A stretch of 64,000 bases of DNA, taken from NCBI GenBank assembly GCA_000004695.1, contig CM000151.3, forward strand, positions 5,184,001-5,248,000, read 5' to 3'. The notes below the pieces were generated by a model. It had not been told where the DNA came from, made no database searches, and worked only from the letters and a program-made list of their open reading frames with translations. This stretch comes from Dictyostelium discoideum. Lineage: Eukaryota. This document shows, in pieces, positions 56,500 through 56,853 of this stretch (within the stretch, counting starts at the first letter, position 1; the number at the start of each line of letters is the position of its first letter). Both the position numbers and the translations under genes were made by a program.

Positions 56500-56853
56500 T
56501 TAATTACAACCACATTGAGTTGGTTGACCACCTCCATTCATTGATCCATTTCCACCGACACTAACTCCGATATTTGCATTTGGTGCACCACCACCACCCA
56601 AAACACCATCTAATAAACCACCAAGTAAACCTTTACTTCGTCCTAAAACATCTCCCAATAAACCAGAACTTGAGCTTCCTCCACATGAAATACTATTTGA
56701 TGCAGCACTAACAGTTGAAAGGGAACCAGTAGTTCATTGCTTTGGGTTTGATAATGTAATTATTGATGCTTTTTTAATAATTTAAATATTTAGTACTTGA
56801 TTTATAAAATAAAAAAATTAATATAATATAAAAACCTTACCAATGATTGTCAT
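56500..56853 (-). pseudogene. hssA/2C/7E-family small Gly/Ser-rich protein gene interrupted by one in-frame TGA (exons 56841..56853 and 56500..56768; TGA at 56734..56736).
   Basis: Exon 1 is ATGACAATCATTG|GTAAGG (MTII). After a 72-nt intron (acceptor aaaaaag, AG at 56770-56769) the frame reads A-SIITLSNPKQ-TGA-TTGSLSTVSAASNSISCGGSSSSGLLGDVLGRSKGLLGGLLDGVLGGGGAPNANIGVSVGGNGSMNGGGQPTQCGCN*. Apart from the single stop this is an intact ~95-codon family member. Confidence 0.45.

Follow-up and report, generated by a model that had tools for sequence, protein, structure and literature searches.

A young hssA/2C/7E-family copy in Dictyostelium discoideum, very probably a pseudogene, with a single in-frame TGA

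A small Gly/Ser-rich gene lies on the minus strand at positions 56500-56853 of a 64,000-nt stretch of Dictyostelium discoideum DNA (GenBank assembly GCA_000004695.1, contig CM000151.3, positions 5,184,001-5,248,000; hereafter the window, with a GC content of about 20-25%), and its only interruption is one in-frame TGA. The question raised by this locus is whether the TGA marks a dead gene, a sequencing error or a UGA that is read through or recoded, readings that a preliminary description made from the sequence alone had set side by side. We conclude that the locus is, with high probability, a young unprocessed pseudogene of the hssA/2C/7E family, inactivated by a TCA(Ser16)-to-TGA nonsense substitution.

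Gene structure

Read straight through on the minus strand, window:56500-56853 translates as MTIIGKVF...KKASIITLSNPKQ-stop-TTGSLSTVSAASNSISCGG...GQPTQCGCN-stop, and contains, together with its upstream flank, the following features.

56841-56853, minus strand: exon 1, 13 nt, ATGACAATCATTG, coding for MTII and the first base of codon 5, with a GTAAGG donor next to it
56769-56840, minus strand: intron, 72 nt, phase 1, GTAAGG...AAAAAAG, 9.7% GC, 3' end ...TTATTAAAAAAG
56500-56768, minus strand: exon 2, 269 nt, Gly/Ser-rich body ending ...GQPTQCGCN, TAA stop at 56502-56500, 3' letters TGTGGTTGTAATTAA
56734-56736, minus strand: in-frame TGA at codon 16, ancestral TCA (Ser), one C-to-G transversion
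56917-56926, minus strand: TATA-like element GGTATAAAAG, some 65 nt 5' of the ATG, conserved in the window and in the orthologous loci L004, L002 and L014 described below

Splicing of exon 1 to exon 2 gives the frame MTIIASIITLSNPKQ-stop-TTGSLSTVSAASNSISCGGSSSSGLLGDVLGRSKGLLGGLLDGVLGGGGAPNANIGVSVGGNGSMNGGGQPTQCGCN-stop, in which the part after the internal stop begins with TTGS and ends with CGCN. This frame has 93 positions (15 codons, the TGA and 77 codons) before the TAA, with no frameshift and no internal stop besides the TGA. Translation of the minus strand thus upholds the preliminary description in its 13-nt first exon (MTII) spliced, across what proves to be a phase-1 intron, to a downstream exon, and in its single TGA at 56734-56736 free of any frameshift or further stop; its near-full-length frame also stands, with the exact count being 93 positions rather than the approximately 95 codons given there. 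Exon 1 is identical in the window, L002, L004, L014 and the closest Dictyostelium dimigraforme copy (L001, contig JBTAPM010000055.1), and the orthologous introns measure 71 nt in L002 and 69 nt in L001, where the products are intact and annotated as 101 aa and 103 aa, respectively. Both splice sites are intact and conserved, as is the TATA-like element, the corresponding position of which is occupied by AGTATAAAAG in L001. The promoter therefore looks intact, and the pseudogene may still be transcribed.

Family membership

According to Kin et al. 2018 (PMC6198379), the hssA/2C/7E family numbers nearly 100 small genes, in which the first exon measures 13 bp and the second about 200 bp. Such a first exon followed by one short intron is characteristic of the family, and the window gene has the same architecture, namely a 13-nt exon 1, a single short AT-rich intron and a 269-nt exon 2. 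Its conceptual product, with X placed at the stop, matches Pfam PF05710 (the Dictyostelium HssA/B family, Pfam name 'Coiled') over positions 1-90 of the 90-position profile with 40.6 bits (E 4.8e-10; cutoff 21.4 bits). Because this match runs end to end and is aligned through the TGA, it is not a chance similarity, and the family assignment made in the preliminary description was right. Alignment with proteins P0002-P0006 and the L002 product further reveals the conserved family termini (MTI-ASI... at the N-terminus and ...CGCN at the C-terminus) around the Gly/Ser-rich core. The gene fits the family in architecture, but the stop at codon 16 interrupts the frame and bars it from encoding the protein; we therefore class it as a pseudogene member of the family rather than as a coding one.

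The coding paralogue hssl25 (DDB_G0275819, UniProt Q553K1) on AX4 chromosome 2 illustrates the difference. It shares with the window copy the PF05710 domain (67.5 bits in hssl25), the N-terminus MTIIASIITLSNPKQ-S-TTGS, the ...GGGQPxxCGCN ending and the size class (96 aa in hssl25), and the two are 55% identical over the full length. Unlike the window copy, hssl25 is intact, has Ser at codon 16 and carries no Asp or Arg in its Gly-rich core; it sits elsewhere on chromosome 2 and is therefore a paralogue. Within the window, tblastn and an exon-1 motif search revealed no paralogues, making the flagged gene the sole copy there, so that no local gene-conversion donor is present.

The ancestral codon

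A search of 5.8 billion proteins gave five full-length relatives, which are hssl25, one protein each from D. cf. discoideum and D. dimigraforme, and two from a second 'D. discoideum' assembly, and all five read SNPKQ-S-TTGS, with Ser at the position of the stop. Overall, Ser occupies codon 16 in 6/6 close full-length homologues, a tally that rests on these six proteins: a word-indexed profile search, saturated with Gly-rich candidates, gave the same six, and an exhaustive HMMER search gave only two hits at library-wide E-values. At the nucleotide level, codon 16 is TCA both in the syntenic ortholog L002 and in the D. dimigraforme copy in L001 (product P0002). Because both read TCA, the window allele arose by TCA-to-TGA, a single C-to-G transversion, which supports the young pseudogene, or lineage-specific nonsense allele, listed among the possibilities in the preliminary description.

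P0002 was considered as the D. dimigraforme ortholog and rejected, as it and that species' ortholog of the neighbouring NmrA-like gene are on separate contigs and it sits inside an hssA-like cluster; it is better described as the closest outgroup copy. L001 carries at least four clustered hssA-like copies, at 1331-1450 (minus), 6001-6381 (plus), 6962-7159 (plus) and 7873-8094 (plus), and the similarity between the P0002 copy and the window continues into about 420 nt of upstream non-coding DNA. The window copy may thus have been derived by duplication out of such a cluster.

Searches of JGI metagenomes with CCAAARCAATSAACYACTGGTTC, in either allele, gave 0 hits, and exact-protein matching of P0001 (an archived product of the locus, described below), hssl25 and the mechanical 52-aa ORF 3' of the TGA returned no contigs in the assembly collection.

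The syntenic locus in other assemblies

The flagged gene lies between the NmrA-like gene DDB_G0275053, with which it is convergent, and a P2X-receptor gene. The NmrA-like gene (55346-56349, plus strand) encodes a protein identical at 305/305 residues to AX4 DDB_G0275053 on the 8.48-Mb chromosome 2, and, anchored on its orthologs, the syntenic interval was taken from seven other assemblies, with the following states of the hssA-like gene.

Window and L004 (GCA_054883475.1), D. discoideum: TGA nonsense codon
L005 (ACTFIR, GCA_054859385.1) and L006 (ACTFIW, GCA_054859355.1), labelled 'D. discoideum': 667 nt, corresponding to window 56640-57306, deleted
L002, D. cf. discoideum ACTFIY: intact, TCA
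L014, D. cf. discoideum ACTFIZ: window 56416-56782 replaced by about 73 unrelated nt
L013, D. citrinum: homology stops at window 56499, hssA-like sequence absent
L003, D. dimigraforme: no copy downstream of the NmrA ortholog

L004 bears directly on whether the TGA is an error of sequencing or assembly in the reference, with a sense codon as the true reading, for which a one-base difference from TCA would suffice. L004 has this TGA too, and its coding sequence is identical to that of the window; over 9 kb it differs from the window by five substitutions outside homopolymer context and in several homopolymer lengths, and these differences identify it as an independent sequence. As this independently assembled sequence has the same TGA, the stop is not a sequencing error, and the preliminary description's suggestion of one, now refuted, retains a negligible probability.

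The L002 ortholog (GCA_054859205.1, L002 5166-5542, 101 aa) resembles the window gene in position, lying upstream of the P2X gene in convergent orientation to the NmrA-like gene, and in structure, with a 13-nt exon 1 and a single intron. Nucleotide identity to the window is 83.5% across the promoter, gene and 3' flank, and PF05710 matches the L002 product with 45.3 bits. The ortholog differs from the window copy in its intact TCA, in having Gly at the window's D53, R57 and D67, and in being eight residues longer, as it lacks the two 12-nt deletions found in the window lineage.

In L005 and L006, which have identical breakpoints, the deletion has taken the promoter together with exon 1, the intron and 129 nt at the start of exon 2, and the remnant has extra 10-nt and 18-nt deletions near the C-terminus. 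In L014 all of exon 2 is lost, with exon 1 and most of the intron being kept. Gene calls at the syntenic site were absent from L004, L005, L006 and L014. Identity to the window in exon 2 of the NmrA-like gene is 100% for L004, 95.9% for L005/L006, 94.3% for L002, 92.8% for L014, 88.5% for L013 and 86.2% for L003. This ranking by neighbour-gene identity places the intact L002 between lesion-bearing lineages, and at least two of the losses are therefore independent; by this sequence comparison, the ACTFIZ deletion, at least, is independent in origin of the lesions in the D. discoideum clade. Codon 16 is removed by both the 667-nt and the ACTFIZ deletions, so that the TGA may have arisen before or after the 667-nt deletion. 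The comparison of orthologous copies that the preliminary description had called for thus yields a TGA in L004, a TCA in L002 and deletions in L005, L006 and L014.

L004 is essentially identical to AX4. L005 and L006, though labelled D. discoideum, are about 4% off AX4 in the NmrA exon and about 90% identical over flanking DNA, and on these figures they look like divergent or cryptic lineages, not ordinary strains. In D. citrinum (L013, around 5024-5170), the point at which synteny is lost coincides exactly with the 3' end of the hssA-like gene (window 56499/56500), and beyond the breakpoint a 1154-aa gene on the plus strand takes the place of the hssA-like gene and the P2X genes. In D. dimigraforme, L003 carries a short remnant of an hssA-like N-terminus, ASITSLSKSKKSTTSSISTDSASS, at 1202-1273 (minus) upstream of the NmrA ortholog, on the side opposite to that of the window copy. 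We found no publication describing the new Dictyostelium assemblies in the literature.

Further changes in the window copy

Polarised with L001 and the L005/L006 remnant, the changes of the window lineage relative to L002 are Ser16 to stop, G47S, G53D, G57R and G67D, in addition to two 12-nt in-frame deletions. G53D, G57R and G67D introduce charged residues, and D, E and R are missing from the Gly-rich core of all recovered homologues. The TGA, which the preliminary description had called the only defect, is the sole ORF-disabling lesion, but the copy also differs from its ortholog by these Gly-to-Asp, Gly-to-Arg and Gly-to-Asp changes and by the deletions. The window-lineage substitutions number about five synonymous and five non-synonymous, too few for a test of neutral drift or relaxed constraint.

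Decoding of the UGA

Were the TGA decoded as selenocysteine or by programmed read-through, the locus would yield a full-length 92-residue HssA/B-like protein. D. discoideum possesses the selenocysteine machinery and five selenoproteins (PMC2375036), and 77 codons are open in frame after the TGA. A search of 56100-57100 on both strands with 4227 Rfam families (E<=10) detected neither a SECIS nor any other RNA family, in keeping with the remark in the preliminary description that no SECIS-like hairpin was evident by eye. The 3' spacer from the TAA to the convergent NmrA stop is 150 nt long, has 8% GC and contains no ATGA core; the first ATGA occurs 331 nt downstream, within the NmrA coding sequence read in antisense, and TGTA..ATGA, the motif conserved in all D. 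discoideum SECIS elements (PMC2375036), is absent. The homologues have Ser (TCA), rather than Cys or selenocysteine, at the site; the TGA is not conserved in any ortholog, the orthologs carrying a sense codon; and the gene is deleted in sister lineages. Leaky read-through contexts take the form UGA-C/CUAG, and the context here, CAA-UGA-ACU with A as the +4 base, lacks this signature.

Relaxed genome-wide SECIS searches together with 75Se labelling gave exactly five D. discoideum selenoproteins (Lobanov et al. 2007, PMC2375036), none of which belongs to the hssA/2C/7E family. The window copy resembles the corresponding genes (SPS2, SelK, Sep15, MSP and DI-like; PMC2375036) only in that an in-frame UGA interrupts a frame which is open elsewhere; unlike them, it has no SECIS, no Cys- or selenocysteine-containing homologues and an unconserved stop, and it belongs to an unrelated family. 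A recoded or read-through UGA, as entertained in the preliminary description, is accordingly unsupported and extremely improbable. Nothing points to stop-codon recoding, and the locus is an ordinary dead copy of a highly multiplied gene. The only tRNA gene in the window is tRNA-Asp(GTC) at 13715-13787 (minus); no suppressor or selenocysteine tRNA lies nearby.

The splice acceptor

The stop would also be avoided if the real intron were 162 nt long (56840-56679), ending at the acceptor GTGGAG|GAAGC and giving the 63-aa product MTIIGSSSSGLLGD...CGCN. This acceptor is in frame and yields an uninterrupted ORF, and the corresponding model was formerly in a public database: P0001, held only as UniParc UPI0000006D5A, joins MTII to GSSSSGLLGD... 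with its acceptor at 56679/56678. The sequence that separates the two models is the following.

56679-56768, minus strand: 90 nt treated as intron by P0001, ancestrally coding for ASIITLSNPKQ-stop-TTGSLSTVSAASNSISCGG, 35.6% GC

In composition these 90 nt are exon-like, at 35.6% GC versus 41.3% for the rest of exon 2, 9.7% for the 72-nt intron and 4.7% for the NmrA intron, and in the intact ortholog and the paralogues they are conserved coding sequence. An intact AAAAAAG|CA, the standard acceptor of the family, is present upstream. PF05710 does not match the 63-aa product, the model is absent from the current NCBI/UniRef AX4 sets, and no assembly in the collection has a gene with that product. 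When all AGs downstream of the donor were enumerated, the only in-frame acceptors were those giving introns of 45, 72, 162, 189, 198, 210 and 231 nt; the 45-nt acceptor was rejected because it runs into stops, and those at 162 nt and beyond because they would delete conserved coding sequence. P0001 appears to be an early automated prediction that got round the stop, and use of its acceptor is very improbable. The proviso in the preliminary description that a different acceptor might change the frame is thus of historical relevance only, since the archived model used a far in-frame acceptor that composition and orthology oppose.

Probable inactivation of the gene

With the 72-nt intron, translation from the conserved ATG would end after 15 residues (MTIIASIITLSNPKQ), and for this reason no family-type protein would be made. 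The locus has the attributes of an unprocessed pseudogene: it is homologous to the family, keeps its intron and promoter, carries a disabling mutation and has an intact ortholog that shows the ancestral state. Neither its promoter and splice sites nor its downstream frame has yet been damaged, which would suggest that the lesion is recent, with too little time for further decay. The same features can be held against the pseudogene: the ORF has a single disabling lesion, the 77 codons 3' of the TGA stay open, and the TATA element is intact, as are the two splice sites. In sister lineages unrelated deletions have eliminated this gene, from which we infer that the locus is dispensable. Among current NCBI/UniRef AX4 proteins the locus has no entry, the only match being the archived UniParc model, and we found neither a locus ID nor expression data for the gene in the literature, including a search of neighbouring IDs in the supplements of PMC6198379.

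Loss of the ORF is not strict proof of loss of function, because hssA, the family founder, reportedly acts via its transcript, with frame-shifted constructs still suppressing the STATa phenotype (PMC6198379). By analogy, the RNA of the window copy rather than a protein could be the active product, making the nonsense codon irrelevant, and the intact TATA element and splice sites would allow for it. Half or all of the transcribed region is deleted in three sister lineages, however, which argues for a dispensable locus, and no conserved RNA structure or Rfam family was found there. Given the repeated deletions in sister lineages, an RNA-level function is unlikely to a high degree, and the transcript, if made, would probably be functionless. 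We consider it similarly doubtful that the copy is alive in the broader sense, either through an active transcript or through low-level near-cognate UGA read-through supplying enough protein. If it were, the TGA allele of the AX4 lineage would be a tolerated functional variant, and the family would offer a natural experiment separating RNA-level from protein-level function.

For the young pseudogene that we favour, the importance beyond annotation hygiene is little: the locus should be annotated as a pseudogene with a 72-nt intron, not as a 63-aa stop-skipping protein. As a young lineage-specific copy it has been disabled in at least three ways in the D. discoideum species complex, by a nonsense codon, by deletion of its 5' part and by deletion of exon 2, and one lineage keeps it intact, providing a clean small case of how birth-and-death turnover works in this family of nearly 100 members. 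The resulting natural set of null alleles could be used for testing whether individual family members matter.

Neighbouring features

Logan unitigs from six SRA runs (L007-L012: SRR28564540, SRR28564542, SRR28564543 and SRR26869266-68) cover the NmrA gene, window 55401-56487, at 99.9% identity. They were set aside as evidence on the hssA-like gene or its splicing, being genomic unitigs that end in the poly-A run at 56487. All of them break at flanking homopolymer runs, showing that poly-A/T tracts fragment short-read assemblies of D. discoideum.

A 77-nt unit, TTTTTTGTAGTTCGCAGGTGTTTTTTTGGGGGTGAATTTCATT..., is present at window 55098-55278 (plus) in about 2.1-2.3 tandem copies of 96% identity. 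The repeat lies about 70-250 nt 5' of the start codon of the NmrA-like gene and may be a duplicated promoter element. Beside the pseudogene lie two tandem P2X-receptor paralogues on the plus strand, at about 59501-60526 and about 62205-63588, with cross-hits that are 71-87% identical and with Pfam PF00864 in the orthologous loci.
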